DNA of 64,000 bases from a virus (taxonomy: Duplodnaviria; Caudoviricetes). The stretch is taken from positions 1,065 to 65,064 of the IMG/VR virus record IMGVR_UViG_3300027881_000012. One strand, written 5' to 3'. Shown piece after piece: positions 15,987 to 63,998 of the stretch. Within the stretch, counting starts at the first letter, position 1. Every line of letters starts with the position of its first letter. The notes beneath the pieces are model-generated. The model was not told where the DNA came from. It worked only from the letters and a program-made list of their open reading frames with translations, and did no database searches. A program made the translations under genes and the position numbers.

Positions 15987-16195
15987 TGGATGAAATACCT
16001 AAACACGTTGGAATATTTGCCGGCTCAAAGATATATTATGCGGATCCGCATGATATGGAAAGGGCTAAACGGTGGGGTAGGCTCATTCACACCGAGAAAG
16101 GCCTGGCGTTTTATATTTGGAATAATGTTACCTACGTCGCGCCGATCGATGATCCGCCTATGCTTCAACTCCTAATCGGTGGAAAGGGCTCTTAG
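15974..16195 (+). CDS. Hypothetical protein, last gene of the + operon
   Basis: Stop codon overlaps the stop of the convergent giant gene. Confidence 0.6.
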   Translation: MDKMMDEIPKHVGIFAGSKIYYADPHDMERAKRWGRLIHTEKGLAFYIWNNVTYVAPIDDPPMLQLLIGGKGS

Positions 16196-25100: not shown

Positions 25101-28100
25101 GTCGCTCGCCAGGTCTTGCGGGTTCTCCTGGTTCGATTCCAGCTCCCTCAATCTCAGGTAGCCGGCCACCTGGTTCGGTTGGTGGTTCAATAGCTCCGCT
25201 AATTTCGATTCCAGGGGTTGCACCAGGTTCACCAGGCCGGACTCCTGGGCCCACACCAGGAATTGCAGCGGGTGGAGCTCCTGGGGGTTCGGCACCTGGC
25301 CGCTCTGTTTCAGGAATTTGCTCGACAGGCGCGACACCGGCAACCGGTTCAAGTTCTTCGCCTGGTTTATATATTGTTTGTCGGTCATTTCTAACGCCCT
25401 CCAATAATGGGATTAAGTCTTCGATTTTATCGACTTTTCCACTTACTAAATTATACGCCTGTGGGCCTGTTTTGTCAATGATTATCAAGCGATTATCAAA
25501 CGTGGTGCCATACTTCTTATACTCCTGGCCAGATATGCCCACATTGGCCGAAACGGTGTAATCTTTTTTGATGCCTTTCCACCATTTTGTGAACGCCGGC
25601 GCGTTGTCTGCCATGCCCTTGCCGACGATCGCCACCAGGCGCCCGCCATCTTCTAACCTGGCCAGGGCTTGCTCTATTTGATCGGCGCCAAACTTGGTTG
25701 CTCGCTTGCCCAGGACTCGGCCGGCGGTCGCGGAAAAGGGCGGATTCATTACAATTACGGTGGGCTTAACAGTTTCGGGCAGTATATTATCAAGCTGGCT
25801 GGCATCCTCAGTGAAAACCGTTTTAAATCCCATCTCGCCCAATAGGGCCGCCCGCCGTTTGTCCAGCTCATTGACAACAATATTATCACCGACAATTTGC
25901 CGGCCAAAAATAGCAAGCCCGCCCACACCGGCCGAGGGTTCAAGGTATGCGTCATTTTCTTTAATGTTCGCTACCCAATTCGCCACATAGGCCAGTGGTG
26001 GCGGGGTGCTAAACTGTTGAAACTCTCCTTGTTCCCTGGTTCTTTTGGTCTGCGTCGGTAGTTTTGCGATCGTATCTTTTAACCATGCGATATTTTCGAC
26101 CGCGTTTTCCGGATCCCGCATTGTGAGCTGGTCGTGAACATAGATATTAACGCCTTGCTCCATAGCATCATAGGCGTCTTTAGGCGTATATTTACCCTGG
26201 GCCTGGGTGCCGGCAAAATCTATATCGGCCTGCTTAAATAGATCTCGCCAGGTTATCGATTCATCTTTGACTAATTTTGTATTTATCCAATTAGCCAGCT
26301 TTGTGGATCCGGCCGCCTTTTCGTGCTCCGGAGCTGCCTTTTCAGCTGGCGCCGGCGCCTCGGCCGGTCGATATTTTTCAATTTCTTGCGTTGTGGCCAG
26401 GGCCAAGTCATAATCATTTTGGGTAAAATCCTTTTCGCCAGCTTGAAAACGCTGCATGGTTTCAACGGCTGTGTCAAAAACGTCTTGGATTTTTTCGGCC
26501 GTTTGGCTCTCGATAGGCTCGCCATAAAATACCTCAAAGGCGGTTTTCTTTTCTGCCGGTGCCTCGGCCTCTACTCTCCATCGGCCAGGCATCAAGGGCA
26601 CAACATCTTTTTCAAGCACTAAACGCTCGGCATATCCGCCAGATACCGCGCCGACCAGCTCCATAAAATCATCCTCGGTCATAGCTCGCGGTGCATCTTC
26701 CGGAAAATAAAACTTGATCCCTTTATCCTCGGCCTGCTTAATCTTGCCGGCTAAAATGCCGGTGGCCTCGGTCCTGGCATCGTCGGTGCGTTTCGGCGGT
26801 TTTGCGATTACATCGGCATTTCGGGCCTGGATAAATCCGAGCCTGGCTGCCGCATAGTTAGGATATTGAGTAATGGCTACAACCTCGCCGGCGTCTTTGT
26901 CGACCACTCTAACCGTTGATTGTGCGCCTGGGGCTGCATCGGCGGTCGGTCGCCATAGCTGCGTTAATACGCCGATATTCTCGCCTTTGGCAATCAGCTT
27001 GCTTTCTGTTTCTCTGATACTGCGCACTGTGCCGATTTCATCATCTAAAAACGGTAACTCAGCCAGGGGCTTTTCTTCCGGCGCTGCCTCTGCCGGCGGT
27101 GCCTCAACTTTGGGCGCCTCGTCTACGATCCGCCGGATTAATACGCCTTTGGTGCCAGTGGCTTTAATCCCTAATATTTGCGCTGCCTCTACCAGGTCCG
27201 GCTTTGAAAATGCGGTTAGCTGCCGGTGCGATAAATCGATCTCGCCGCGCTGGATCCGGCCGGCCAAGATTTCGCCATCGGTCTTAGTGGTGATAGTGGG
27301 CGGGGGAGCCTCGACCGGCGCCGCCACTTCTGGCGGAGCTGCCAGGTCAATTTCAAAATGTTCTTGTAAAGATTCTTCCTGGGTTTTCGGCTTAAACATC
27401 TGTACTTGCTTTTTAGTATCTGCCGCCGCGTCGGTCGCGTATGCTTTCCAGCGTTCTTTGTGCCTGGTGGGCTTGTCTTTGATAAGCAGATCCGCCAGCT
27501 TTTCGGTAACAACCGTATATTCGGGCTTGGCTTCAAATAAAGGTTGCTGTGCTAAAAGATCTCTGACGCTTAGATCCTGGGCCTGGGCTGCGGTCGCCAG
27601 ACGTAAACCCTCTTTAAGATCCGACGTTATATCCCATTTGCCGCCTCGAGCCTTAACCTTTGCCAGCTCGGCCAGGGATTTTTCAATCTTGTTTAGGTGG
27701 GATTTTTGGGCGCTATTGATAAGATCGAGATCATCCACAATATTACCGAAAATGGCCAATTCGATTACTTCTTTACCCCTTTTGTTCAACAAATCGCCCT
27801 TTTCGTTCAAATATACGTTCTTTTGTGTCGCAGAGATCGCGCCATCATCGATGAGCCAGCCGAGGATTTCAAGGCCGTCTTTCTTGCCCAGGAGCTCACG
27901 CAGTGAAATTTCGCGGTCGGTCAACCGGATCCCTATTTTTTCCATCGTCGCCGGCTTTATCGCTTTGCCCATCGAGGCGGTTTCCGCTGCCTGGCCCATG
28001 CCCTGCGTCATGGTTTCGTTGAATTCTCGCGCCAGGGCCCGCATTACATACTCGCTTTCAATCCGGATCCGGCGGATCAATACCGGCTGTTTCATCGGCT

Positions 28101-31100
28101 TTATATCTTTGGGCGCCAGGCCAAATTTAGAGGCCGCCGCTATCAGCTGGTTTTTATACCTGGCTGCCTTTTTAGGATCCTTAAAGGCCAGCTGGATTGA
28201 CATAGTTCTGGAATTTCCGGATATAACAAAATCGCTTTGATCGACAATCGGCGGGCCGCTGGTAGGCGTCGGATCATCTGAAAGTAAAATCCGAGGATCC
28301 AGCTTGTTTGCATTTGTTATAACTTTTGCTTGCTCGGCGGTATCAGAATGATAGGCGCGTTCCTGTATCCCTTCCGGATAATCGCCGTAAGGCTGGAATG
28401 TTTCGGGGTTGTGGCTTGGAAAGAGTGTGCCGGCCTCAACTACCGTGTAGTGTGCTCGATGGCCCTCTGCATTTTGCGGTGTTATGATCCTGGTTTCGGC
28501 CTTTTTTGATATGGGCTTTGGATAAAACTTTTCCGCGATCGGCCTAAGTTTATCCAGCAAATCATCCATATAGGCCGCTTTGCGTTTGAAATGATCGTAT
28601 TTTAAGACCGGATTCTCAGTGACTCCTTTTTCCTCTAATTCCTTTGTGTAGGCGTTTGCCTCGTCGCGCTTATCAACAATCCACTGCCGCGCTTTGTCAA
28701 TCGTTTCATAGCTGCGGGGATCCAAAACGCCCAGGGCTATCTTGACATAACTTTCCTCGACTCCACCAGGCTTGACAAATTCCTCCCAGGGTTTCGCCGG
28801 CAAAGTGGCCTCTGGCGGGCTGGTGGGCTCCGGAGTGGTTGCTCTCTGTGGCGCCACCCTGGGCCCGCCCTTTAAGTCCGGTTTTTCTTCTGGCACTGCT
28901 GGCATTTCCGGCGGGGCTGCCTCTAATTCTGCCGGTGGCTTTACGGTTTTGCCGGCCTCGACTTCATAGCCCTGGCGCCTTAATAATTCAGCGTAAAATT
29001 CATTTAAAGGATCAAGCGGATCCAGGGCCCGATCGGTGGCATACTCCGCGATCGTATTAATGCCCAGGCGCTCCATATCGGCTGGAATATTGGCCACATC
29101 TCGCTCAACCTGGGCCCTGGCCTCGGCTAATTGTTCCTCGGCGCTCATCTTATCCCAGGCTTTTAATCCGGCCATTTTTCTTAACGCCGGCATAACGCCT
29201 TTAACGGCCGCCTGGTTTTTTGCAAATTCTCTGACAATCCGCTGCGTTGCTGCTGCACCTTTGGGCAGGGCGGGAGCCGGCGGGGGGGGTGCCGCCGGCT
29301 TTGCGGGTGGGGCTGCTGCGGTAGGTTCTTCAAACATATCCTCGGCCGCTGTGGCCGCGCTCGGTCGATCTTTAAACATTCCCAGGCTGGCACCTTCGGG
29401 GCTTACAAGTTCAATTAAGGTGCCCTCCGGTAATTTATGCTCAACAAGGCCCGCGCCTGTATCCAATATAAAAGAGGGCTCGCCGGCTTTGGCTGCCGGT
29501 GCCGCTTTCCATCGAGGCCCTAATTTTTTTACCGGCGGGGGAGCTGCCGGCGGTTTCTCTGGAACAACCTCGACTTTTTTAGGTGGCGCCGGCGGAGCTG
29601 CCTTTTTCATTTCAAAGGCTGCCAGGTCCGCCCGCATGAGCCCTAATTTTTCTTTAAGGGCCATATCTTTGTCTTTAATCAGATCGAGGACCGATTTCTT
29701 TTGCTCCGGCGATAAGCTGGCCACTAAATCATTATATTCTTTTTTCAAGGCCTCCGGCTTTTGTGCCTTTTTAATAATGCCGGCAATCTCTTTAAAGGGC
29801 TCGCCTTTCTTTTTGGCCTCGAGCGCCTGGGCATATCCCTTGATAACAGTATCGACAAAACGCTGTGCCTCGGCCTTAGTTTTATGAGCTCGGCCAGATA
29901 ATGTGAACGTGGCGCCTTTGGCCGCGCCGCTGGTCACTGTCATTTGCAGGCCGACCGGTTTCTCGTTCTGATAGATCACATTGTCAAAGCGGATCTTAGC
30001 GCCGGACTTTTCGCCCATTTCATCGGCCAGGGCTTGAAAGGTTTTGCGCTTAGAGGGCGCTATCCTGGTCGGTGCCTCGCGCTCGGCCTCAACTTGCGCC
30101 ACTCTGATAATACCCTCCGGAGCTTTCGGGGGCGCTTTTGCCGGCGGGGCTTTTTCGGGTACCAGCGCCGTTACTGGCTCTGCGGGCACTTCGACCGCCG
30201 GCGCTACTTCCGGAGCCTCGGCCGCTGCGGCCTCTAATTCTTCCGCCGTAAATTCGGCTGCGACTTCCTCGGCCTCGATGCCCTCGGCTCCGACAAATTC
30301 CCTGGGCGCTGTGGGTGGGATTTCCTCGGCCGGTACTCTTTCGGCTGCGGCCTCTGGCGCCAGGTCTTCATCTAATAAAATATCCTCGGCCGTCTGGCCG
30401 TCATAATCTTTTAAAAGGCGGTCTATTTGATCGCGGGCCTCTTTGCCGGCTGCCTCGACTTTTTTCTTGGCTCTGCGCTCGGCAACCACTCCATAACCGT
30501 ATTGAGTAGATGCGGCCGGTCCGCCTAATACTGGCTCCATTACCGCGCCGATCCGGCCTTGTTCATGCACTCCCTCGAATAAAGACCGCTCGGATCCAAC
30601 AAATTGGGCCGCCGCGTTTGACACCATTTTCTGGCCGCCTTCCTCAACATAACCGGCGCCAGATTGTTTTGCGGTCCATAAAGTCGGCCTGGCCACTGCC
30701 CAAACGCCTTTTTTTGCTAATTGGGCGCCCTTTTTGCTCATGGCTTTTTGTACGAATAGCCTGATGAGCTCGCGCTTCATGGCCTTTTTGCCAACATTCT
30801 TGCCAAAGTGTTTCAGTAAAGCAGGGCCAAAACCTAACCGCTCACCCAGGCCCTCAATAAATGCTGATGGTATAGCGCCAATCAATGTGAGATCCGACTT
30901 AACCTCATCGGGCACCTTGATGCCCTCTCTCCTTTCCAGCTCCGTTAATTCGGCGTCGATTTCTTTAACAAATTGCGGAAATAAAACCGCGCCGGCCATT
31001 AAGGTGGCCAGGCCAGGGCTTTTGGTGGCGGTCTGCACTCCCATGTAAGTGCCGATTGATAAAAATGAATTGACAATATTAGTTGAAATAGTTTCACCCC

Positions 31101-32418
31101 AAAAGATACCAGGATATTTGACTTCGCGTTCTTCCTGGTCTAATTCTTTCCAATCATCGGGGAGTTTATAGTCTGGATTGTCTTTATAAAACTGCTCAAT
31201 ATCTTTTTGAACATTCAAGTTGCGCTCAATAGTTTTTTTGCGCAATTCCTCCATGTTTTCGGGCGGATTAGACCAGGTTACAATATCATTCGGCCGCTCC
31301 CTTAACATGGCGCCGTGTTTTTCGGCCTCGGAAAAAATCAAATCATCTACTAAATGGCCAGTTCCCCACAAATCGGATGCCTCTTGCTGGAATCTGACTT
31401 TATAGGCCTCTTGTTTTTGAACATTATCGGGGTGCGCTTTTTTCGCAATTTGATCTACTACTGAGTCCAGGCCTTTTTTTTGCTTGGTGTCTGCCTGTAA
31501 CCATAAATAATAATTCGTGGTATAAAGGCCTTTCTGATATTCCTTAAATCCGGTATAGCCACCAGGGCCCATACGGCTGCCAAATTGGTTTGCAAAGCTC
31601 CCGCCTGCCTCGCCGGTTAGATCCCTTTCTGCGTTTGAGTCTGTATCATCAGCATAGCCGGCGCGTAATTCGTGCAGCTCTCGCGGATCCTCGATCCAGG
31701 GCCCCTTGCCCTCTGGAAATTGAAAATTAGGATCCTTCTCTAATATCCTTTTCTTAGCCTCATTAAGCGTTTTTTGGTGCCGCTTTTCTCGTTCCTTGCG
31801 TTCTTTAGTCCAGGCCCTTACGTCTTTTTTTGCATCCGACCAGCGCCAGGGCTCGGTATCTGCAATTAACGGCCGGCCGGTTTCCGGATCCACTGTCGGC
31901 CCTGCCGGCGCCTCGCCGGTTTCCTCGGCCGCTTTATCGGCCGCGAGCTGTTGCTCTAACTCATCTGCTGGCCGGCCCTCTAACTCGGCCATTTCCTTTT
32001 GATAGGCCTGTTCGAAAGGAGTAATCGGCCGCTCTGCCAGTTCCTCTTTAAGTATGGGCTCGCCCAACTGCCCAGGGGCGGCCATGAATTCGCTTGCCTC
32101 GCCTGGTCCTGGGATCCCTAAAGGCTCTCGCTCCGGTGCGACTCCCTCGCGCTCGGCTCTCAAATCCTCTGTTAAAGGCGTTGCCGGTTTTACTGGCTCC
32201 TGGGCCTCGATGGCCTCTTGCCGGCGCTGTTCTGTTTCGATCTCTGCCGGCGGTACCTCTTTTGGTGTAAAAAACTCTTTCGCCCTGGCAAAAATGCCCT
32301 TTTTCTTTTTTTCTTCCTCATCCTCAAAGGGGTCATAATCGAGGGGATCGCCGGAGTGATAATCTCCAACATCTTCAAAAGGATCGTAATCAAGTGATTT
32401 GCCTGTTCGATAGGCCAT
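16192..32418 (-). CDS. Giant DarB-like polyvalent virion protein: ParB-like (DdrB-type), SAP-like, N6-adenine MTase, Strawberry-notch SF2 helicase, RadC/JAB, zincin metallopeptidase, large C-terminal domain
   Basis: SHNP..FQP...Q.R.Y...GPPIV...SGNSR (about 28.4-28.2 kb); QFSTP, EPSAG.GG, NPPFS (about 26.0-25.7 kb); GTGVGKGR, DESH, SATG, GRSHRSNQ (about 24.0-22.3 kb); HNHPS...PS.ED (about 20.65 kb); HE.FGHHG (about 19.7 kb). Confidence 0.88.
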   Translation of the reverse strand: MAYRTGKSLDYDPFEDVGDYHSGDPLDYDPFEDEEEKKKKGIFARAKEFFTPKEVPPAEIETEQRRQEAIEAQEPVKPATPLTEDLRAEREGVAPEREPLGIPGPGEASEFMAAPGQLGEPILKEELAERPITPFEQAYQKEMAELEGRPADELEQQLAADKAAEETGEAPAGPTVDPETGRPLIADTEPWRWSDAKKDVRAWTKERKEREKRHQKTLNEAKKRILEKDPNFQFPEGKGPWIEDPRELHELRAGYADDTDSNAERDLTGEAGGSFANQFGSRMGPGGYTGFKEYQKGLYTTNYYLWLQADTKQKKGLDSVVDQIAKKAHPDNVQKQEAYKVRFQQEASDLWGTGHLVDDLIFSEAEKHGAMLRERPNDIVTWSNPPENMEELRKKTIERNLNVQKDIEQFYKDNPDYKLPDDWKELDQEEREVKYPGIFWGETISTNIVNSFLSIGTYMGVQTATKSPGLATLMAGAVLFPQFVKEIDAELTELERREGIKVPDEVKSDLTLIGAIPSAFIEGLGERLGFGPALLKHFGKNVGKKAMKRELIRLFVQKAMSKKGAQLAKKGVWAVARPTLWTAKQSGAGYVEEGGQKMVSNAAAQFVGSERSLFEGVHEQGRIGAVMEPVLGGPAASTQYGYGVVAERRAKKKVEAAGKEARDQIDRLLKDYDGQTAEDILLDEDLAPEAAAERVPAEEIPPTAPREFVGAEGIEAEEVAAEFTAEELEAAAAEAPEVAPAVEVPAEPVTALVPEKAPPAKAPPKAPEGIIRVAQVEAEREAPTRIAPSKRKTFQALADEMGEKSGAKIRFDNVIYQNEKPVGLQMTVTSGAAKGATFTLSGRAHKTKAEAQRFVDTVIKGYAQALEAKKKGEPFKEIAGIIKKAQKPEALKKEYNDLVASLSPEQKKSVLDLIKDKDMALKEKLGLMRADLAAFEMKKAAPPAPPKKVEVVPEKPPAAPPPVKKLGPRWKAAPAAKAGEPSFILDTGAGLVEHKLPEGTLIELVSPEGASLGMFKDRPSAATAAEDMFEEPTAAAPPAKPAAPPPPAPALPKGAAATQRIVREFAKNQAAVKGVMPALRKMAGLKAWDKMSAEEQLAEARAQVERDVANIPADMERLGINTIAEYATDRALDPLDPLNEFYAELLRRQGYEVEAGKTVKPPAELEAAPPEMPAVPEEKPDLKGGPRVAPQRATTPEPTSPPEATLPAKPWEEFVKPGGVEESYVKIALGVLDPRSYETIDKARQWIVDKRDEANAYTKELEEKGVTENPVLKYDHFKRKAAYMDDLLDKLRPIAEKFYPKPISKKAETRIITPQNAEGHRAHYTVVEAGTLFPSHNPETFQPYGDYPEGIQERAYHSDTAEQAKVITNANKLDPRILLSDDPTPTSGPPIVDQSDFVISGNSRTMSIQLAFKDPKKAARYKNQLIAAASKFGLAPKDIKPMKQPVLIRRIRIESEYVMRALAREFNETMTQGMGQAAETASMGKAIKPATMEKIGIRLTDREISLRELLGKKDGLEILGWLIDDGAISATQKNVYLNEKGDLLNKRGKEVIELAIFGNIVDDLDLINSAQKSHLNKIEKSLAELAKVKARGGKWDITSDLKEGLRLATAAQAQDLSVRDLLAQQPLFEAKPEYTVVTEKLADLLIKDKPTRHKERWKAYATDAAADTKKQVQMFKPKTQEESLQEHFEIDLAAPPEVAAPVEAPPPTITTKTDGEILAGRIQRGEIDLSHRQLTAFSKPDLVEAAQILGIKATGTKGVLIRRIVDEAPKVEAPPAEAAPEEKPLAELPFLDDEIGTVRSIRETESKLIAKGENIGVLTQLWRPTADAAPGAQSTVRVVDKDAGEVVAITQYPNYAAARLGFIQARNADVIAKPPKRTDDARTEATGILAGKIKQAEDKGIKFYFPEDAPRAMTEDDFMELVGAVSGGYAERLVLEKDVVPLMPGRWRVEAEAPAEKKTAFEVFYGEPIESQTAEKIQDVFDTAVETMQRFQAGEKDFTQNDYDLALATTQEIEKYRPAEAPAPAEKAAPEHEKAAGSTKLANWINTKLVKDESITWRDLFKQADIDFAGTQAQGKYTPKDAYDAMEQGVNIYVHDQLTMRDPENAVENIAWLKDTIAKLPTQTKRTREQGEFQQFSTPPPLAYVANWVANIKENDAYLEPSAGVGGLAIFGRQIVGDNIVVNELDKRRAALLGEMGFKTVFTEDASQLDNILPETVKPTVIVMNPPFSATAGRVLGKRATKFGADQIEQALARLEDGGRLVAIVGKGMADNAPAFTKWWKGIKKDYTVSANVGISGQEYKKYGTTFDNRLIIIDKTGPQAYNLVSGKVDKIEDLIPLLEGVRNDRQTIYKPGEELEPVAGVAPVEQIPETERPGAEPPGAPPAAIPGVGPGVRPGEPGATPGIEISGAIEPPTEPGGRLPEIEGAGIEPGEPARPGERPGERIRPGDEREREGIPEAPDLSLDDLDALINEVIEEEDLTAKPAGGKKAAPKKPPVKGKIPKTDQGQFAAIANIIGNIKEPTAEYKPTVKAKELDLMTQTWAEEIGKYGTEKAQDTRGILKQLIEPLSNIADSDPIEMNVPGLEQDIFFANQKDARDFLEAYDAVLDDYLAYGGLINQAGAAPRSIQTLDNITTKIFPKTQLEAAAEVREPAAAFEALLHPQAYEQAKPILDANYTEFKGERKEWIRYVLVNLAKYNIDPEVGRNWIKYYYTTDRPDLARAPAPVRKDLIQARKKKREKIKASLYEEYQPNVEVKGARPHPTPLVETAALSDTDLPKATYKPDLPKHILKPTKKSAGISNVQLEFSIYAGQAHERFLPDGTRMGAFAGHGTGVGKGRIIASIMMDNWNKGRKKAIWLTEKQSLLNDASRDIIEMGWSEGAKALVNLNKAAAAGGKVKAKHRDNTILFSTYSTLGQGFKKINLNKPESFDDMRARINQIVEWAGADYDGVIAFDESHNMANSMQEQGARGRKPTADKALAGVLLQTMLPKARVIYVSATGATKVSNFAYAERLGLWGEGTSFADKRAFIAEINKSGLAAMEMIARGMKARGLYMAPSLSYDGVIYDRLVHELTEEQTDIYDKLAEAWQVIMRNTEAALELTNGNKSGRAKMAARGRLFGTQIRVFDSIMTAMQMPSLIRKMEKNIADGESVIIQLTQTNDAAVQRALERRQEGEDLEDLDFTPRIAISEYLQRAFPIEQYEIRTDKDGNEYAVLVRDEAGDPVENRQAVAMRDAMLREIGALRIPDSPLDQLFNVFGTDKIAEVTGRKSRVVKDLETGEYINQKWSLAKAKADVEAFKNDEKQILIFSEAGGTGVSYHADKRYKNQRLRQHYLLQPGWKASTAVQGLGRSHRSNQRQAPKYTLITTNLKAQKRFVTSIARRLDQLGALTKGQRQAGSQGIFQARDNLESDYAREALVQTFEDMVAGTLEMSAEDFQHQTGLQIVDERTGRLTGELPEMTKVLNRMLSMTINSQNTFFGDISDRLDRIIQAHAEAGTLDVGIETIDGLAVEKESERVVHTDPESGAETKYVRVSVTEPSRRVAFEDVSHLNFYQNIKSGRVWAAGETRDRTTTTGSIIAYRKMQSPNDTIQRQDESILTDEDKWIKLADKPDLSPARIWAAEYANIPETTDRDIHLITGDLLSVWDRLVGFATVYRMETDAGERLLGRVIHPNVLDQVLTNLGASADAPQVKSGVLGAKILGGARVTLANGWAFKKSMVSGDERIELLDFGHRDIDLLEKQGAIIEEINFKTRVFIPTKNNKKIFDRILLNRPVTNIAGGYQGPRIADTTLSEASAEFAGKVAKKIQAGKKAIQMDLLEYAQSAKTEKAVEALPEPTQKVEIRSTGEMGFESHVIANAEDAAAFIQPITEQAQEKGYMISVDAQGNIKEVHFIAKGARGAVGIPIVETVGRLFNTPGVTKAYFIHNHPSAEADPSPEDRAMAYTLIEMAAAGGVEIENIIVGGDVWALYSPISAAPSVKRKGKIRKTTRKTTIPIVERFIERGKRRGGPISNSGELTAHLEKYYNDRQGYLFLDNKLNDLGFVEFTPGQTASENLKEIIAEGERLNASVFIFNSKGTDAELNSRMKFLTEWNENVGGNMMQLFEFRHNGVSFADQGKVPSPKKTQDILDQKVAPITFDYILGDSPVFARKLIAPADPVTVEDVNTTVETVTAQWAAPGPKIRVYKEQQGLPPEVMDFIKEDGRENSIITGAYYKNTIYLVADNIGSNEEIVTTILHEGFGHHGLRGTLGKEGKDVFKVLRDLYIAKKNEVDKIGRELGFDLTTMDGQMQAAEEWFANQAQLGIKSKWYDRLVAAIRNWLRKLDLDIKLSNPEIRALIAAARQFTLTGQRVSAFPGQTPAFKKKKYGKAIDYGGILPEDVARRMAAAKGVGKGSFMATTKEKLAELKMERAHFPGLEKIENKKQRAQLADILRIHQEIPENARSITAEKMKDFIKDLSTDAYDIYTMNIILADMMRDIKTGLLNDQMLREGETLPFGFKTIQDVQTADAQFKRLAEIHPEIATALSDRKAYIDNMVGQLVKFKILKKEVLQHEDYFHHQVLQYWGLKDTNKGVSTGSADVRQHWRPWMAARKGSLLDYNTEYIEAEFTALSQQLGQLETAKTLERIKRQADIYGQLKDQAKRENLTNFYKQAARQLSIQFKTEITVGEVMADSKLDPLFPYRQKIAMASSQLENMAFNDKLGGDSEFADIIDQLAEIKRAKKEDLEGAPAGISDARYFDFLAYLVRTGQPGASWAATIFKNIHARNKHVQTALGKNFLTFRQLIPEGYEEWKPEPGKGWFWANTLADNVLQQVIAGERDLQDNDVKQILAKGRDIIWVMPTGLTETLDNFKAQIEQRMVGRISEASLRMWKQYILINPMRVMKYNINNMSGDLDITLAYNPKILKGFFKSLRDLRAFNKGKAGAAVKAELQLARKLGVTGSGWAVQEVEEITKKMGTDKFVRQIIMGEKPNIAMRYWQLAKGATTTRENILRLAAFRHFKQEIAKGKRVYGASKPDEIDAIQNDTERAAKLSRELVGDYGNISSSGQWIRKRLMPFYSWMEINSPRYVYMLRNVRYEGREPGARPLAIASKKALTKGLAYGAKAAMLYTLINIYNHLLWPEEEEEFGKSGRRQLHLILGRREDGSIMSIRFQGALSDTLSFFGLEDFPEDVKELWKGEKTIQQKLIEVPKALVTRLFHAIRPEPKMLMEAATGYATYPDPFSPRPIRDTKEHILRTFSLDAIYRRARGRPGRGKSMATHFLSDLERLVVYNSDPGEQAYYDTRNMIFDWKKDKGIEVSYGKPTNRGNALYYYKQALKFGDFKAAERYLMKYYDLGGKPSSLKQAIKQSHPLAGVKKMDRFKFKKDLNPAQLKTLERAIKWYDLTYRKEEPRKLRYETRRKFLKKKAAERAR
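25029..25388 (-). CDS. Nested (overprinted, +1 frame) 119-aa helical protein inside the giant gene
   Basis: GGAGGG SD 8 nt before the ATG; protein-like L/Q/N/E composition; coincides with the P/G/E-rich linker of the outer frame. Confidence 0.65.
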   Translation of the reverse strand: MTDKQYINQAKNLNRLPVSRLSSKFLKQSGQVPNPQELHPLQFLVWAQESGLVNLVQPLESKLAELLNHQPNQVAGYLRLRELESNQENPQDLASDLVNELDQAMSESVRGYPKPPTLA

Positions 32419-50809: not shown

Positions 50810-51946
50810 TTAGGTGGTCGGATTCTTAGCAGCGGTATCAATTACATAAATACCGTAATCCTTGCCGTTGAAAGTGACCTTTTTCACGCCGAAAATACTG
50901 TGCGTGGTGATAACAAGCTGATTGCCGTTATCGCGGGTTTCCTCGAACCAGCCAAACCTCAAACCGGTGCCAGGGGATCCAAACGCGCAGACTCCCGCCT
51001 GCTCACCCAGGAAAAGGGCTCGGCATGCCTCAATATCGGATCCGGAGCCATAATCATCAAAGCGGATCAGATTTTCGTGTTCGTGCAACACGATATTGTT
51101 ATACATGCCCAGGGCGCCCTTAAAAATCGGGTTGTTACGCCCTTCGGCCGCCGCTGCCGCTTTTTGAATATCGAGCCACTGCCCAACATTCACGTTGGTT
51201 CGCACGTTATAAACTTGCCACGGATTCATAACCGTACAGAAATGGTTTTCACCATTAATCATAATCGGCATGATCTTAGGCGTCTGCGTGTTGCCATCGG
51301 TGCCGGCGTCGCCGCCTCCGGATCCGCCGCCCATCATGGTTGCTACCGCTTTGGCCTTGTCGAGCTCGCTCAGAGTTAAAACATCGGTAACAAGCAAGGT
51401 GGCTTTGGTTTTGCCGTTGGCCACCTGGATATGCTCGCTATCCGGAGCGGTCAATGAATTGCCGGCAAAACCGGTATAGGTTGACGGAAAAACAAACTCG
51501 GCATTGATGCCTCGAGCTCCGGAAAGATACATGAAATGGAGCTCATCGAATACGCGGGCCCACCACTCGCTTTGACGCTTGCGCGATACTTTGCGCAAAT
51601 TGTGGATGGTCCGCTTTCGGGTCATGCGGCCGCCGGAATTCACACCGCCGCGCATCTGGTCGATAAAGACGCCATCGGTGTAAAATTTCAGTTCTTCTTC
51701 CTTGTTCTCGAGAACATCATCCCCCTCGACCGGCTGCATTTTCAGCTGCATGGAAAGATCAAAAGAAATGAATTCGCCGGCGTCATTTTCCAGCTCATTG
51801 AGCTGATGAATGGGCATGCCACTCTCAACTCCCTGGCCAAAAAATTTCCGGCTCCAATAGGAAGTACGCGCTACGTCGACCGCGAGAAATGCCGAATACT
51901 TCTTGACAGCTTTGGGGTCATTTACCCCAATAATTGTTTGTGCCAT
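50810..51946 (-). CDS. Major capsid protein, N4-gp56/DUF4043 family
   Basis: T.IGVNDPKAVKK.S..L; IDQMRGGV..GG.MT.KRT.H.LR; NPIFKGALGMYNN.VLH; RALFLG.QA..AFG. Confidence 0.93.
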   Translation of the reverse strand: MAQTIIGVNDPKAVKKYSAFLAVDVARTSYWSRKFFGQGVESGMPIHQLNELENDAGEFISFDLSMQLKMQPVEGDDVLENKEEELKFYTDGVFIDQMRGGVNSGGRMTRKRTIHNLRKVSRKRQSEWWARVFDELHFMYLSGARGINAEFVFPSTYTGFAGNSLTAPDSEHIQVANGKTKATLLVTDVLTLSELDKAKAVATMMGGGSGGGDAGTDGNTQTPKIMPIMINGENHFCTVMNPWQVYNVRTNVNVGQWLDIQKAAAAAEGRNNPIFKGALGMYNNIVLHEHENLIRFDDYGSGSDIEACRALFLGEQAGVCAFGSPGTGLRFGWFEETRDNGNQLVITTHSIFGVKKVTFNGKDYGIYVIDTAAKNPTT

Positions 51947-58373: not shown

Positions 58374-59858
58374 TTAGACGCTCATAGCTGTGCGCCGTTT
58401 GCGTTTCCATTTTTCGGATCCGCGCTTTTTAGGTTTGTTGCCCACCAGGCGGACCATGACATATTGAAAGGCGTCGTGGATATGTGCAAATCGGTTCTTT
58501 TCCGCCTTATCGAAAAACTCGCCGGTGTTCATTATCTCTTTGTAATGATAACCGCCTAAGAATCCATTGAGCAGCCTGGTACAGGTCGGATCTATCAAAC
58601 AGCCATCGATCCTGGCCAGGATGCTATCGACCGCCTGAGTGCGAGCTGTAAAGTTTTGCTCCGAGCTCTCAACGGTGATACCTTCCTCGCCCATCAGTAT
58701 TTGATTGCTGGTGAATCCGCCCTCCTTCTTTGAAAACTTGGCCGCGCCGGCCGGATCCCCATAGTCCACCCAATCGGCATTAGGAAATCGCTTGTTACAT
58801 TCTTCTTTCACCCATTTGGAAAAATCAACGATGCCCATCTTATCGTGACAGAATTCTTTTAAAACTTGGTAGCGCAGGGGTGAAGGGTTATAAACGACGA
58901 CGGCTGCCGGCACGTTTCCGGAGTTATCCCATCCTCGATACAGTGTGCCAGGGCCCACCCATACAAGCGGAGCTCTCGCCTGGTGCAGATCCCGCCGGAA
59001 ATTATAATATACCAGCTTGCCTTTGACTAAGACGCCAGGCTTGCCGTCGATATACATTTCGATCCAATCCGGAGTATCTTTATAGTCCAGCATTAGATCG
59101 TTGTAATAGCCAGGCCGCAGATACTTTTCGTTTTCTCGCGGGGGCTGCCAGAATCCTTCATGGTTTGCCAGGGGCTCTATTTCCGGTATGGGCCCTGGCA
59201 CTTCGTTTTGCCAGGCGAATTGGTGATAGGTGGGCATCTCAATATCGGGGGGGTTGGTGGTTTCGAGGCCAAAACGAGGCAGGGGGAATGTTTCGTTTCC
59301 ATCGATGATCCACTCCGGCGGGACCGCGCCAAACTTCTGCTTGTACCACTCGACGGCCTTTTTCATCTTTGGATAGCGGCCGATCCTGTTTTTGAGCATA
59401 CGCTTGATCGAGTCGGCCACTTCGATTGACTCATCGATCCAATAGCCAGTTACCTCGAGGCTCTTAAACTTCTTAACGTCTTGCTCTCGATCGCATGATC
59501 TAAAAAGGAGTGTTACGGTGGGGCCGTCCGGATGCTTGATCGTGTACTTTTGCTCTTGCTTTAGAAATGCGCCGAATGGGAACCACTCAAAGATGGTTGT
59601 TTGCGTAGTATCTCGGAGCTCGGCATAGGTATTGCGGACAACAACAAACTTGGTCTGTTTGATATTGAAATGCTTGAATAGATGCCAGGGGATAAGGTTG
59701 CACACTTCCCAGGCTGCGCCGGTGGTTTTGCCTGATCCGACCGGACCGACTATGGCGCGTAAAGGGGCTCCCGACTTATGAAATTGCCTAATCGTCGGAA
59801 TGGCATCGTATGTGACCTTTTCCTCATTGGTTTCGTAGCTGTGTTGAGCTAATGCCAA
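58374..59858 (-). CDS. terL: Terminase large subunit
   Basis: GPVGSGKTT, VVRNTY.EL.DTT, W.DE, TNPP, GWD, DPAG, HIHDA.QY. Confidence 0.93.
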   Translation of the reverse strand: MALAQHSYETNEEKVTYDAIPTIRQFHKSGAPLRAIVGPVGSGKTTGAAWEVCNLIPWHLFKHFNIKQTKFVVVRNTYAELRDTTQTTIFEWFPFGAFLKQEQKYTIKHPDGPTVTLLFRSCDREQDVKKFKSLEVTGYWIDESIEVADSIKRMLKNRIGRYPKMKKAVEWYKQKFGAVPPEWIIDGNETFPLPRFGLETTNPPDIEMPTYHQFAWQNEVPGPIPEIEPLANHEGFWQPPRENEKYLRPGYYNDLMLDYKDTPDWIEMYIDGKPGVLVKGKLVYYNFRRDLHQARAPLVWVGPGTLYRGWDNSGNVPAAVVVYNPSPLRYQVLKEFCHDKMGIVDFSKWVKEECNKRFPNADWVDYGDPAGAAKFSKKEGGFTSNQILMGEEGITVESSEQNFTARTQAVDSILARIDGCLIDPTCTRLLNGFLGGYHYKEIMNTGEFFDKAEKNRFAHIHDAFQYVMVRLVGNKPKKRGSEKWKRKRRTAMSV

Positions 59859-59878: not shown

Positions 59879-60220
59879 TTATCCTCTCCTTTTGCTTTGC
59901 CGGCCTCCTGGCCGGTATAGTTCATCAAATGGGATCCGCTCGGCCGTACACACATAATAATCAGTGCCATCGATCTTGACCGGTTTGATCTTCGACCATG
60001 CAGATCCCCATCGTTGCGCATCTTCAATTTGCGATAGGCTTAACTTGTCCTCATAGATATGGACGCCATCATATTGGCCCAGGGCGCCGGTGAAAAGCGG
60101 ATTAGGGTAGGCCGCTGCCGGCGCCTTTTCTGCTGCCGCCACCAGGACCGCCGGCGCCATGACGGCCGCAGCTGCCCCGATACCGATCTGCTTTAGAAAT
60201 TTCCGCCTTGTAATTTTCAT
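59879..60220 (-). CDS. Twin-arginine signal protein carrying major-capsid-like fragments
   Basis: TRRKFLK plus hydrophobic helix; NPLFTGALGQYDGV and KIKPVKIDG.DYYV resemble MCP segments. Confidence 0.65.
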   Translation of the reverse strand: MKITRRKFLKQIGIGAAAAVMAPAVLVAAAEKAPAAAYPNPLFTGALGQYDGVHIYEDKLSLSQIEDAQRWGSAWSKIKPVKIDGTDYYVCTAERIPFDELYRPGGRQSKRRG

Positions 60221-60340: not shown

Positions 60341-60973
60341 TTAGGCGCTTTTGATCTGTGCCATGCCGGCATCGACCGGTTTCTCTAAGTCGCCTATAAT
60401 GTAGTAGGTGATCTTTTCGACTCCGGATCCGTCGCCATCGAGGCCGTAAGTTTGCCTTTGCAGGGGCACTATCTTATCAACCACATAGGCCACTGTTCGC
60501 AAAAGATTGTTGCGCTCTTTCAATGCCAGCTGCGCAGCCATGACGATATTTTTCTTGACTCGATCGCCGCCTGCCAGCTTGGCCATGATGCCGCTCGAGC
60601 TCTTTAAATCTTCGACGGTTACATCTATCTGTTGCAAGATTTTGGAAAATAAAATCTTGTGAGCTCCCACCACTCCCGCGCCTACCTCGCCATAGCTCTC
60701 GATGGACTCATCATAGTTATCGGGTGTAACCGCATGCTGTAACTCAGCCTCGAGTAGCTTGTGGTTGACCGAATTTTTAACATCGGTGGCCAGCTTGCGC
60801 GTTAATCCGAGGCCATCCATGTGTTTCATTATGGCCTGGCGGGTCGGTCCATAAGCCCTTGAAATCGCTGCAACACTTAGCTGGCCGAGCTGGTACTCAT
60901 TCTCAACCTTTTGCCAAATCTTAACCGGATAACCGTTGCCGTTAGCCTGGCCGTTTTTCTTCTCTTGTGACAT
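60341..60973 (-). CDS. terS: Terminase small subunit
   Basis: W..VE.EY..GQLSV.AI...YG..R.AI HTH; L.RQ.YGLD; upstream of terL. Confidence 0.75.
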   Translation of the reverse strand: MSQEKKNGQANGNGYPVKIWQKVENEYQLGQLSVAAISRAYGPTRQAIMKHMDGLGLTRKLATDVKNSVNHKLLEAELQHAVTPDNYDESIESYGEVGAGVVGAHKILFSKILQQIDVTVEDLKSSSGIMAKLAGGDRVKKNIVMAAQLALKERNNLLRTVAYVVDKIVPLQRQTYGLDGDGSGVEKITYYIIGDLEKPVDAGMAQIKSA

Positions 60974-61346
60974 TTCGATTATGCCTCATTAGGATCCTGG
61001 TGAGTTGCACCTGTAACCTAAACCTGGTTTTTTGAACGATGCCCAATCCACCAAAAGGTATCATGTAAATATTTAATCTTGCAATAATATTTTCATCCAG
61101 GGCGCCGTCCGCGATCAATTTTTGGCCTGTAACCTTAAAATATTGGTGTAACTCATGCGGTCTTAGCCGGATATTTTTAATAATCCTCTCCACTTGCGCC
61201 ACTTCCAGGGCCTTTAATTCATTATTTAGGCTGTCAAAAGGCTGCCAGGGTGTAACCGGATCCGTAACCTTTTCCAATTCCAGCCAGGAAGTATAAATAA
61301 TCTGAGCCATTTCAGTGGTTGTCAATTCCTTTAACGTGCTGGTCAT
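60942..61346 (-). CDS. Divergent RyR-domain-like protein
   Basis: PFDSL...K and MIPF..L...QK, P.ELH....K..ADG pattern. Confidence 0.4.
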   Translation of the reverse strand: MTSTLKELTTTEMAQIIYTSWLELEKVTDPVTPWQPFDSLNNELKALEVAQVERIIKNIRLRPHELHQYFKVTGQKLIADGALDENIIARLNIYMIPFGGLGIVQKTRFRLQVQLTRILMRHNRNVTREEKRPG

Positions 61347-61712: not shown

Positions 61713-62108
61713 TTAACCATCGTCAAGGTATTTGGCGATAATCCCCGCCATCTTTGTCCTTAACTTAATCCAGGCACCATCATAGGAGCTCGCATCTTTG
61801 GCCGGATCCATCAAAGCGAGTTTCCAGCCGTCTAACAGGGTTTCAATCGAGTCAAGCACTGGATCTAACTTGCCTTTCATTTCGGCCTTATCCTCTGCCG
61901 TCAAAAGGGTGCCGTAAACGGTTAGAGATTCGAGCTGGTCATTATAAAACTTCCGAGCTGTGACATACTTGCCTTTCGGCGTATCCGGTATGGGATTACC
62001 GGCAAATCGAGTACCCGCGCAGCCCGCGACCGCGATCACCAGGAACACTGCTATAATTAGCAGTATGCTATCGCAAAATTCGTGAAAAATCTGTTTCCTC
62101 AGTTTCAT
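61713..62108 (-). CDS. Lipoprotein (spanin-like candidate)
   Basis: Hydrophobic signal ending in the lipobox VAGC. Confidence 0.65.
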   Translation of the reverse strand: MKLRKQIFHEFCDSILLIIAVFLVIAVAGCAGTRFAGNPIPDTPKGKYVTARKFYNDQLESLTVYGTLLTAEDKAEMKGKLDPVLDSIETLLDGWKLALMDPAKDASSYDGAWIKLRTKMAGIIAKYLDDG

Positions 62109-62135
62109 TGAAAAGGCCCTCCTTTCCTTTAGGGA

Positions 62136-62573
62136 TTATGCCGGCGGTGGTACTCTCGGCTCCATCGCGCCGGCGTCGATTTTGAGCCGCTTGGTTGTCA
62201 AGACGGCCGCCTCGACCTGGCCGGAAATAAATTCAGCCAGGTTATCGTTTGCGAGCTCTAAAATTTTCTTGGTGGCTGTTGGTAGCTGGTCGGTAATTGA
62301 TTTAATCGCGGCCTCTTTTAGCACCTGGCCCTCATCCTGGGTAATCGCGCCATCGGCGCCTACTTGCTTAACCGTTTCATTTACCCGCACAACCGCGCTT
62401 TGCACCACTCCGCTTAAAATCACCATAGCATCATCGACGGCCTGGCTATCGGTCTTGGTTTTAATCCATTTTTTCAGCTCGTACAGGGCCCAGGTTGTCA
62501 AAGCCGATACGGCCGCCACTGCAAATGGAATAATAATTGCTAAAATCTGCTGCGATATGGTTGATTCATCCAT
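62136..62573 (-). CDS. Holin, LL-H-like
   Basis: One N-terminal TM; V.SAV...E; I...VEAAV. Confidence 0.65.
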   Translation of the reverse strand: MDESTISQQILAIIIPFAVAAVSALTTWALYELKKWIKTKTDSQAVDDAMVILSGVVQSAVVRVNETVKQVGADGAITQDEGQVLKEAAIKSITDQLPTATKKILELANDNLAEFISGQVEAAVLTTKRLKIDAGAMEPRVPPPA

Positions 62574-63252: not shown

Positions 63253-63675
63253 TTATTTAGGCTTGTCAACCTCGGATTTTTTCTCGGCCTCATCGGCGTC
63301 CGGTTTTTTCTCGCTCTCTGCCGCGTCGCCGCCTACTGCGCCAATACTTTGAATGTTTTGAACGATCTTAATTACGCTGGCTGCAAATTTTGTTGCCTGA
63401 TCCGGTTTCATGGCCATCCAGCTGATACTCTGCCCAAAATCGACAACTATCTGGCCGGCCTGCTCCTTGACCTGGATCCGCAAATCTCGCTTGGGTATCG
63501 CCATGCCTGCGCCTGGTGGCCCGCCGCCTATCGGAATACCATGCTTTTTGGCCAGCTCCTTGACCTCGCTTAAAAAATCCAGCTGCTTTTTTGTGTCGGC
63601 TGCCGCCTGCTCGCCCGCCTCATCTCCGCCGTTGCCTTTCTGCCGGCTCGGTGCTTTCTGCGATTTTTTAGCCAT
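63253..63675 (-). CDS. Hypothetical protein (start at MAKKSQK), paralogue of 5736..5975
   Basis: GGAGGG SD before the internal ATG. Confidence 0.6.
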   Translation of the reverse strand: MAKKSQKAPSRQKGNGGDEAGEQAAADTKKQLDFLSEVKELAKKHGIPIGGGPPGAGMAIPKRDLRIQVKEQAGQIVVDFGQSISWMAMKPDQATKFAASVIKIVQNIQSIGAVGGDAAESEKKPDADEAEKKSEVDKPK

Positions 63676-63840
63676 TAAACCCTCCCTCTTGTTCCAGGCC
63701 GTAGCGGCCTCTTTTAAGTTACGGTGAAAACCGGTCTGGATCCCACACCCTCGACACTGGATCCAGGTATCACTCCCGCCCTCTAACTCCATGACCAGGC
63801 CCAAATCATTACAATCTGGACAATGTTTGATCTGTAAAAT
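63676..63840 (-). CDS. Lar-like restriction-alleviation Zn-ribbon segment, in frame with the downstream gene
   Basis: CPDC...WIQCRGCG..T......EAATAWNKR; apparent ATT start with AGGGAG SD; no stop before 63675. Confidence 0.55.
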
Positions 63841-63998
63841 TAGAACAGCTCCCTTTCGCCGGCGGTCACTTCTCGATACGCCGTTTCGAATACGTCTTTG
63901 GGGCTCCATGAAATATAGCCATCCGGATATTTCACCTGGTAGCCTAACCGATCATCCCCGATCATCGCCTTGCCCTGGCTCTTTTTAAATTCAAACTC
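63840..63998 (-). CDS. 5'-truncated phage protein with a GYxVxYxDGYxSWSPKxVFExAY domain
   Basis: Hand translation ...GYQVKYPDGYISWSPKDVFETAYREVTAGERELF*. Confidence 0.75.
   Translation of the reverse strand, partial: EFEFKKSQGKAMIGDDRLGYQVKYPDGYISWSPKDVFETAYREVTAGERELF

Follow-up and report, generated by a model that had tools for sequence, protein, structure and literature searches.

The locus and its small gene

The stretch of DNA analysed here, referred to as the window, comprises 64,000 nucleotides of a virus assigned to the Caudoviricetes and corresponds to bases 1065–65064 of the 65,064-base record IMGVR_UViG_3300027881_000012, which is rated complete by CheckV. The window has a GC content of 49.9%, and DNA of this phage is present in seawater metagenome runs, with no RNA dataset among the runs listed. 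Between the packaging genes terS and terL, on the minus strand, lies a small open reading frame (ORF) in whose product, to judge from its sequence, a leader of the twin-arginine translocation (Tat) type precedes two segments of the N4-gp56/GP4-type family of major capsid proteins (MCPs) in permuted order. The first-pass annotation had placed this frame of 113 amino acids (aa) between the two terminase genes, a position upheld by the ORF call and by matches of the neighbours to PHROGs. The features on which the argument depends are the following.

59879..60220, minus strand: whole ORF of the Tat-leader capsid-mosaic protein, 113 codons plus stop, ATG start; the same slot is also filled in relatives
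60110..60220, minus strand: residues 1–37, putative twin-arginine leader with TRRKFLK, an Ala/Gly-rich hydrophobic region (h-region), Pro23, and AxA motifs ending at A30 and A37
60050..60103, minus strand: residues 40–57, the hairpin NPLFTGALGQYDGVHIYE, counterpart of MCP residues 272–289, the block conserved most strongly among MCPs
59918..60049, minus strand: residues 58–101, a helix, a beta-hairpin (KIKPVKIDGTDYYV) and an IPFDEL turn, counterpart of MCP residues ~190–250 minus a long loop and helices
59882..59914, minus strand: residues 103–113, basic tail RPGGRQSKRRG, found in some members only according to the alignments
51080..51133, minus strand: MCP residues 272–289, parent-family counterpart of the first hairpin, from sequence alignments and the MCP model
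51197..51379, minus strand: MCP residues ~190–250, parent-family counterpart of the second segment, from alignments and the MCP model
60341..60973, minus strand: terS, upstream neighbour across a gap of 120 nucleotides (nt) (phrog_1206, E 9.9e-17)
58374..59858, minus strand: terL, downstream neighbour across a 20-nt gap (phrog_2, E 8.6e-22)

On the minus strand, the 120-nt gap between terS and the small ORF is free of promoter-like and terminator-like sites and, therefore, co-transcription with the packaging genes terS and terL is likely. The small ORF is a real accessory gene inside the packaging/head gene block. The MCP itself (50810..51946) is a full-length PF13252 protein (Pfam, E 4.5e-55), closely similar to gp2, the MCP of Ralstonia phage GP4, for which a structure is available (PDB 8h89; E 2.9e-112), and the phage is N4-like in its MCP family only. 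The best match of its terL to a cultured phage reaches only 33% identity, and the small protein has no match at E<=1 by tblastn in 50,697 phage records.

The twin-arginine leader

The Tat consensus can be read directly as T4-R5-R6-K7-F8-L9-K10, with R5, R6, and F8 invariant across 15 members of the family described below, and it is followed by an Ala-rich hydrophobic stretch in which the best 12-residue Kyte–Doolittle mean is 2.29. The NCBIfam model TIGR01409 scores 25.1 bits on the window protein (cutoff 16.7, E 1.6e-5), in agreement with the Tat signal proposed in the first-pass annotation. This model is listed for 15/15 members at E<=10, with a best E of 2.6e-6, and its cutoff is reached by six of the eight members with scores seen, P0012 (15.0) and P0018 (16.0) falling slightly below it. 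Moreover, an AxA motif lies between the arginine pair and the hairpin in 22/22 members, and the distance separating these two elements is 35 residues in 14 of the 22 and 30–39 residues in 21 of them. Among PDB sequences, the family profile matches the Tat signal peptide of NapA best (2pq4_B, E 0.062), and the nearest clusters by features in the ESM Atlas are small Tat-leader proteins (best score 0.91), the query to this resource giving no structural lead at TM 0.5 and only Tat-leader look-alikes. The pre-protein has a mass of 12.4 kDa. Its predicted passenger, of 76–83 aa and 8.7–9.3 kDa, is small and hydrophilic, with a grand average of hydropathy (GRAVY) of -0.74 to -0.79.

Capsid-derived segments and their permutation

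The first segment (residues 31–57) aligns with MCP residues 261–289 in BLASTP with 14/29 identical positions (E 1e-5), and its Smith–Waterman score of 63 against the phage's own MCP was reached by 0/2000 shuffles (z 11), so that the resemblance reported in the first-pass annotation is well founded. N40, P41, L42, F43, G45, G48, and Y50 of the hairpin are invariant in 15 members, and in a PHROGs search the small protein matched only phrog_334 (E 0.0041), a family of major head proteins, and one family of unknown function. The hairpin is identical to the phage's own MCP at 9/18 positions and to eight foreign MCPs at 11–14/18. Being nearer to the family consensus than to its own MCP, it is not a recent copy of the MCP gene of this phage, and the comparison with that protein in the first-pass annotation has to be amended accordingly.

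The second segment is more diverged. Its best local alignment with the phage's own MCP (KIKPVKIDG.. on MCP residues 224–239) is marginal, since 63/2000 and 18/2000 shuffles reach the score (z 2.4–3.3), it is not reported by BLASTP, and the segment alone has no match in Pfam or NCBIfam. A hidden Markov model (HMM) of 329 positions was built from eight foreign MCPs of other viral contigs, the phage's own MCP being excluded. Against this model, the second segment alone scores 8.2 bits on positions 166–200, a value reached by 0/1000 shuffles (shuffle maximum 0.5). Furthermore, a profile of seven tails of the type found in the window protein (type A, see below), compared with the MCP alignment by hhalign, gives a probability of 94.6% and an E of 7e-8 over 44 columns that span the helix, the IKPV..G..YYV hairpin, and the subsequent turn. 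The place in the MCP first named for this segment and its relationship to the family at the profile level thus stand, while the direct match to the phage's own MCP is marginal only.

When the whole small protein is compared with the MCP HMM, residues 37–60 match positions 228–251 (26.3 bits) and residues 58–90 match positions 166–200 (7.0 bits), so that the two segments follow each other in the order opposite to that of the MCP, as had been noticed at the outset. The significance of the HMM and hhalign comparisons, together with this reversed order, confirms both the two-piece homology and the permutation. The relative P0012 keeps the native MCP order in one collinear match (residues 64–114 on HMM positions 183–250). 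The full-length MCP model PF13252 scores 12.7 bits on the small protein, below its cutoff of 23, and covers only profile positions 248–272 of 376; by these profile matches, the small protein is a derivative of the N4-gp56 family (PF13252/TIGR04387) and not a member of it. The loop between the two MCP elements copied by the small protein holds a Gly-rich insertion of its own, GGGSGGGDAGTDGNTQT (MCP residues ~206–221; 51284..51331, minus strand), which has no counterpart in the GP4 MCP as aligned by HMMER and has a model confidence (predicted local distance difference test, pLDDT) of <50.

The copied pieces are the two most conserved blocks of the MCP, in which G232, P242, G269, N272, P273, F275, G277, and A278 are invariant in nine MCPs. 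Defence systems that sense capsid, portal, or terminase proteins exist, and the small protein could be imagined as a cytoplasmic decoy for immune sensors of conserved capsid elements, the leader serving to tether or remove the bound sensor. The choice of the most conserved and least mutable blocks would suit such a decoy, as would their closer agreement with the family consensus than with the MCP of this phage. However, export would remove the decoy from the very sensors that act in the cytoplasm, and the gene adjoins the terminase genes in the packaging/head block rather than lying among early genes. No defence-related family was detected in the Pfam, PHROGs, and NCBIfam scans (PADLOC was not run), and searches of the literature yielded no account of a decoy of this kind. 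Taken together, we regard this explanation as highly improbable.

Probable position of the copied elements in the capsid

In the structural report on the capsid of phage GP4, the helices, strand, and hairpin of the MCP to which the copied pieces correspond are assigned to the A-domain (PMC9698820). In hexons, Trp245, located on the pore helix, enters a hydrophobic pocket of the same subunit formed by Leu237, Leu246, Pro261, Ile262, and Leu267, and in pentons five Trp245 side chains are directed into the pore (PMC9698820). According to the alignment of the MCP with 8h89, combined with the hhalign columns, P41, L42, L47, and L101 of the small protein would correspond to four of the five residues of this pocket and, on this basis, both pieces would form part of a single structural unit located in the centre of the capsomer. 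As a whole, the MCP model obtained with AF2 is of low confidence, with pLDDT values of 82–89 over residues 231–260 and 281–290, and contains helices at 192–203, 242–250, and 254–268, a strand at 228–240, and a hairpin at 278–289. The AF2 model of the small protein is weak (pLDDT 64; predicted template modelling score, pTM, 0.24), with a helix at residues 62–71 and strands at 73–83 and 86–96, and a Foldseek search of the PDB with this low-confidence model gave no match at E<=0.001. A complex prediction of the MCP with residues 31–113, run without controls, gave a score of 0.00 in both runs; it provides no verdict and counts neither way.

A mosaic family

Across the family, the constant part is the hairpin, which follows the leader at a near-fixed distance, and the subsequent piece varies from one subfamily to another. 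In type A, comprising the window protein, P0001, P0002, P0010, P0018, and P0020, this piece is the helix/strand segment described above (0/500 shuffles each). In type B (P0003–P0005, P0008, P0009, L019, and L022), the hairpin is followed by a 'GDQW..AQ..RG' helix, which, within the MCP, resembles most the helix that carries the Trp and immediately precedes the hairpin. This match is weak (hhalign E 0.017, probability 2.6%) and, when the members were tested individually against the HMM, 7–219/500 shuffles reached the score in six of the seven, the best match of P0004 being a single residue. An origin of the second piece of type B in the MCP Trp helix is, thus, suggestive only. Type C, represented by P0013 and the metagenome-contig sequence L025a, carries a piece of the MCP N-terminal arm (N-arm), matched with 7.2 bits in L025a (0/1000 shuffles) and 4.1 bits in P0013 (3/1000 shuffles). 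The tails of L004 and L018 are not significant alone, 72/500 and 40/500 shuffles reaching their scores.

The contig L025 (1157..1734, plus strand) presents an arrangement of its own, with two tandem small ORFs, each preceded by an MNRR.FLKR Tat-type leader. The first contains the hairpin and the N-arm piece (0/1000 shuffles each), and the second is without MCP likeness.

Since the subfamilies pair the hairpin with different MCP pieces, the family looks like a mosaic, in which a leader and an invariant hairpin are joined to a further, subfamily-specific MCP piece, rather than like one permuted fold. The two permuted pieces described in the first-pass annotation are, therefore, one variant of a wider mosaic family.

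Distribution, conservation, and evolutionary rates

An exhaustive phmmer search over 1.84 billion representatives gave 16 matches at E<=0.001, 12 of which are small Tat-leader proteins of 89–125 aa and the other four long repeat proteins. Word-indexed searches added P0002–P0004 and P0020, and viral contigs provided five further distinct sequences. The family collected in these searches amounts to 22 members and, thus, is rare. The four repeat proteins (P0014, P0015, P0016, and P0019; 522–2924 aa) match residues 51–108 with E values of 2e-5 to 3e-4, and W.S..P..VDG.TYI-type repeats are carried by P0014 and P0019; all four were left out of the family as presumed unrelated repeat amplification. 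Regarding genomic loci, none was found in viral contigs for P0012 and P0018, nor in metagenome contigs for P0012, one viral-contig locus with a short match (L016) was obtained for P0010, and the locus scan with the alignment (A6) returned L025 only. The terS sequence, used as a single query, had no match.

The slot between terS and terL holds an ORF with a Tat leader and the hairpin in 8/8 related contigs that show DNA upstream of terL, the contig L017, without upstream DNA, being left out of this count. The small gene is fixed, not optional, in this clade, and the survey of relatives for the Tat-plus-fragment design proposed in the first-pass annotation has, thus, found this design in every assessable contig. 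Nevertheless, the gene evolves rapidly. It is 38–46% identical where terL is 82–86%, portal 87–90%, MCP 94%, and terS 62–70% identical, and its rate of nonsynonymous substitution (dN) of 0.52–0.54 versus 0.09–0.13 for terL makes it about five times faster. The ratio of nonsynonymous to synonymous substitution (dN/dS) in the leader-plus-hairpin half is 0.37–0.39, a rough value, as are all ratios given here, because dS lies at 0.9–3.7, near saturation. Together with the fixed slot and the 22 members, this value bears out the conservation on which the first-pass annotation had made its proposal depend.

These data bear directly on the explanation that the small protein has no function and resembles the MCP either by chance or as what is left of a decaying duplication. 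Such a view could invoke the marginal pairwise match of the second segment to the phage's own MCP, the rough dN/dS near 1 of the C-terminal half in one comparison, and the rarity of a family in which four of only 16 matches are unrelated. Against it stand the significance at the profile level described above, the invariant residues of leader and hairpin, a frame that is open in 22 diverged members and keeps its slot in all eight contigs, and an identical copy of the gene, covered with 0 differences by contigs from two further seawater runs (X3 and X4). In the diverged run X5, the gene is uncovered at a likeness of 80% or higher, an observation that carries no weight here. This explanation is extremely improbable and already largely refuted.

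Other genes of the window

Upstream of terS, a 134-aa ORF (60942..61346, minus strand) overlaps the terS start by 32 nt (60942..60973) and is kept in this position in L003, L004, and L005 with 38–44% identity. Further upstream (61713..62573, minus strand), a protein of 145 aa, which begins with a membrane helix and weakly matches a holin family (phrog_13712, E 9.6e-4), adjoins a 131-aa protein with a lipobox-like VAGC; the two genes may form a lysis cassette, located 1.5–2.3 kb upstream of the small ORF. A 218-aa protein (63253..63909, minus strand) matches phrog_599 (E 1.3e-9), a family of Lar-like proteins for restriction alleviation. At 16192..32418 on the minus strand, the window encodes a 5408-aa ORF with ddrB-ParB (E 5.8e-18), RadC-like JAB (E 8.5e-9), and ResIII domains, as well as the Strawberry-notch-type helicase domains AAA_34 (E 3.5e-100) and Helicase_C_4 (E 2.3e-81). 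Its interpretation as an N4-type virion RNA polymerase was rejected, since these domains are those of a giant polyvalent helicase/ParB/RadC protein. A second Tat-leader gene in the window was also ruled out, the other two hits of the motif search being antisense ORFs within larger genes.

A proposed Tat-targeted mimic of capsid elements and its alternatives

The reading that we tentatively prefer, although we would place it somewhat below an even chance, is that the small protein acts as a Tat-targeted mimic of capsid elements, in which the face formed by the hairpin and the pocket binds whatever that element binds in the shell. By its sequence, the pre-protein consists of a canonical twin-arginine leader and a small hydrophilic passenger set at a fixed distance after it, the passenger being a rearranged, shrunken version of the A-domain core of N4-gp56/GP4-type MCPs. 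In this passenger, the NP(L/I)F-G..G beta-hairpin comes first, followed by the helix, the beta-hairpin, and the 'HP..L' turn that precede it in the real MCP. The leader would direct the passenger to TatBC and, from there, through the inner membrane or into it, where the protein would be cut at one of the AxA sites or would stay anchored. The invariant hairpin/pocket face would then bind the usual contact of that capsid element, namely the Trp helix or N-arm of the MCP itself, in the form of free MCP or capsomers, or a factor recognising them. Here we infer export, cleavage, folding, binding, and a benefit to the phage. According to passages of a 2026 review of the Tat pathway, this system copes with small passengers that expose no hydrophobic stretches, even if they are unfolded (PMC13673990), and we count the small hydrophilic passenger, which fits the tolerated kind, in favour of this reading. 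Of the membrane-directed or exported capsid mimic proposed in the first-pass annotation, the descriptive half, namely a protein of capsid origin that its leader would send to the membrane or the periplasm, holds on what can be read from the sequence. The roles suggested with it, a decoy for capsid-sensing immune receptors, a membrane anchor for procapsid assembly, or an interference factor against related phages, are candidates between which the sequence data do not discriminate.

Several observations weigh against a Tat-targeted capsid mimic. Firstly, the leader is called from sequence profiles and motifs, and the Pfam model PF10518 (TAT_signal) gives no match to the window protein at E<=1 and, in the six of seven other members for which it is listed, scores 8.1–19.1 bits, under its gathering score of 22.7. 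Moreover, the reading presumes a Tat system in the host. Secondly, the AF2 model of the small protein reproduces the helix and the beta-hairpin of the second segment, but leaves the NPLF hairpin unstructured and unpacked, and thus gives no picture of a folded mini A-domain. Thirdly, the unrelated second pieces of other subfamilies (the N-arm in P0013 and L025a, and possibly the Trp helix in type B) are hard to square with one common fold. Finally, the rough dN/dS of the C-terminal half rises to 0.94 in one comparison, almost neutral, and the strict conservation of the hairpin could stem from local folding needs instead of a shared binding partner.

The state of the passenger also bears on a different possibility, in which an incomplete domain with an exposed core engages TatABC and stalls, and the small protein works as a plug of the translocon or as a membrane-leak factor. 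The result would be a late-infection disturbance of the membrane or of host Tat export, for which any conserved fragment of a hydrophobic core would do. The review passages mentioned above describe that Tat passengers with exposed hydrophobic regions that are not fully folded cause a late translocation stall and growth defects (PMC13673990), and the passenger is indeed made of fragments of a larger fold, encoded within the packaging/head gene block. On the other hand, the passenger is hydrophilic and of the kind that Tat tolerates according to the same passages (PMC13673990), and hydrophobic exposure alone would not require a near-invariant NP(L/I)F-G..G. We consider a translocon plug improbable.

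A further alternative is that of an exapted periplasmic protein, whose capsid origin would be mere history and whose task in the envelope would be unrelated to capsids, such as a superinfection block, the periplasmic retention of incoming DNA or of ejection proteins, or the tuning of lysis. The genuine leader and AxA sites agree with this possibility, and the speed at which the C-terminal half evolves is characteristic of proteins acting where phage and host meet. In addition, the basic tail RPGGRQSKRRG is present in part of the family, and the weak holin-like gene and the lipobox-like gene lie at a short distance upstream. Two analogies point in the same direction in the parts of the sources consulted, namely the periplasmic DNA-binding protein HxsA, which blocks DNA entry (PMC13128918), and the antiholin RI of phage T4, which is periplasmic (PMC8385771). 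Nevertheless, a mere historical origin does not readily account for a hairpin that retains the invariant residues of the MCP family over long divergence, or for subfamilies that each add another MCP piece and not unrelated sequence. This pattern suggests selection for the resemblance to the MCP as such. Moreover, no known exclusion or lysis family (holin, antiholin, spanin, or Sie) was found for the small protein in the Pfam, PHROGs, and NCBIfam scans. An exapted envelope protein is, in our judgement, unlikely, yet it deserves serious attention.

The mimicry that we tentatively favour could be part of a more general scheme, in which the Tat leader is a portable address tag placed before interchangeable, conserved contact elements of head proteins, and in which such tagging is a widespread device. 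The elements would be the MCP hairpin/pocket with the strand, the Trp helix, or the N-arm, and Tat would be suited as the one export route handling pre-bound, folded cargo. The mimic would first capture a partner in the cytoplasm, be it capsid protein awaiting assembly or a host factor recognising this protein, and then drag or tether it to the Tat translocon, with the effect of coupling head assembly to the membrane or of evicting a capsid-sensing host protein. Head proteins are, however, the donors most readily recognised, and their seeming prevalence in such a device may in part be an effect of ascertainment. This generalisation seems to us improbable.

Significance and comparison with known systems

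If the small protein is exported, the phage sends a look-alike of the most conserved and least mutable surface of its shell out of the cytoplasm, where no described phage function requires such a capsid look-alike. Each of the conceivable outcomes would be new if true, whether a capsid mimic that binds capsomers, a trap for host factors recognising capsids, or a Tat-dependent device for timing or exclusion. No paper on Tat-leader proteins built from capsid fragments was found in searches of the literature directed at such genes, and the phage passages of the 2026 Tat review deal only with protein E of phiX174 and SlyD and mention no phage-encoded Tat substrate (PMC13673990).

With the Tat signal peptides of small bacterial substrates (TIGR01409, PF10518, and NapA), the leader shares the RRxFLK motif, an Ala-rich h-region with a proline, the AxA motif, and a length of ~30–37 residues. 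Unlike bacterial Tat substrates, this small protein is encoded by a phage and its passenger consists of capsid pieces and not of a redox enzyme or cofactor protein, its export being predicted only. As a small signal-bearing protein in the conflict between phage and host, with a basic tail in part of the family, it has features in common with the envelope-acting T4 antiholin RI (PMC8385771) and the host protein HxsA (PMC13128918), as far as the consulted parts of these sources describe them. However, there is no sequence relationship to either of them, neither is capsid-derived there, and the likeness is an analogy only.

The relationship to the N4-gp56/GP4-gp2 MCPs (PF13252, TIGR04387, and 8h89) is of a different nature, since two core blocks of the A-domain are shared, with the same invariant N, P, F, and G in the hairpin and P..G..YY in the strand. 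In contrast to these MCPs, the small protein covers ~60 of ~330 profile positions, in permuted order, and is devoid of the N-arm, E-loop, P-domain, and spine helix. Lacking these parts, it is unable to build a shell. As a whole, the family illustrates neatly how, in nature, fragments of a domain can be permuted and recombined to give small proteins of a new kind. It differs from circular permutation in the pairing of the hairpin with different MCP pieces in other subfamilies, and the weak AF2 model of the small protein reproduces the parental three-dimensional fold only in part. With circularly permuted domains, it shares homologous segments that are swapped relative to the parent, along with a relative, P0012, in which the parental order is kept.

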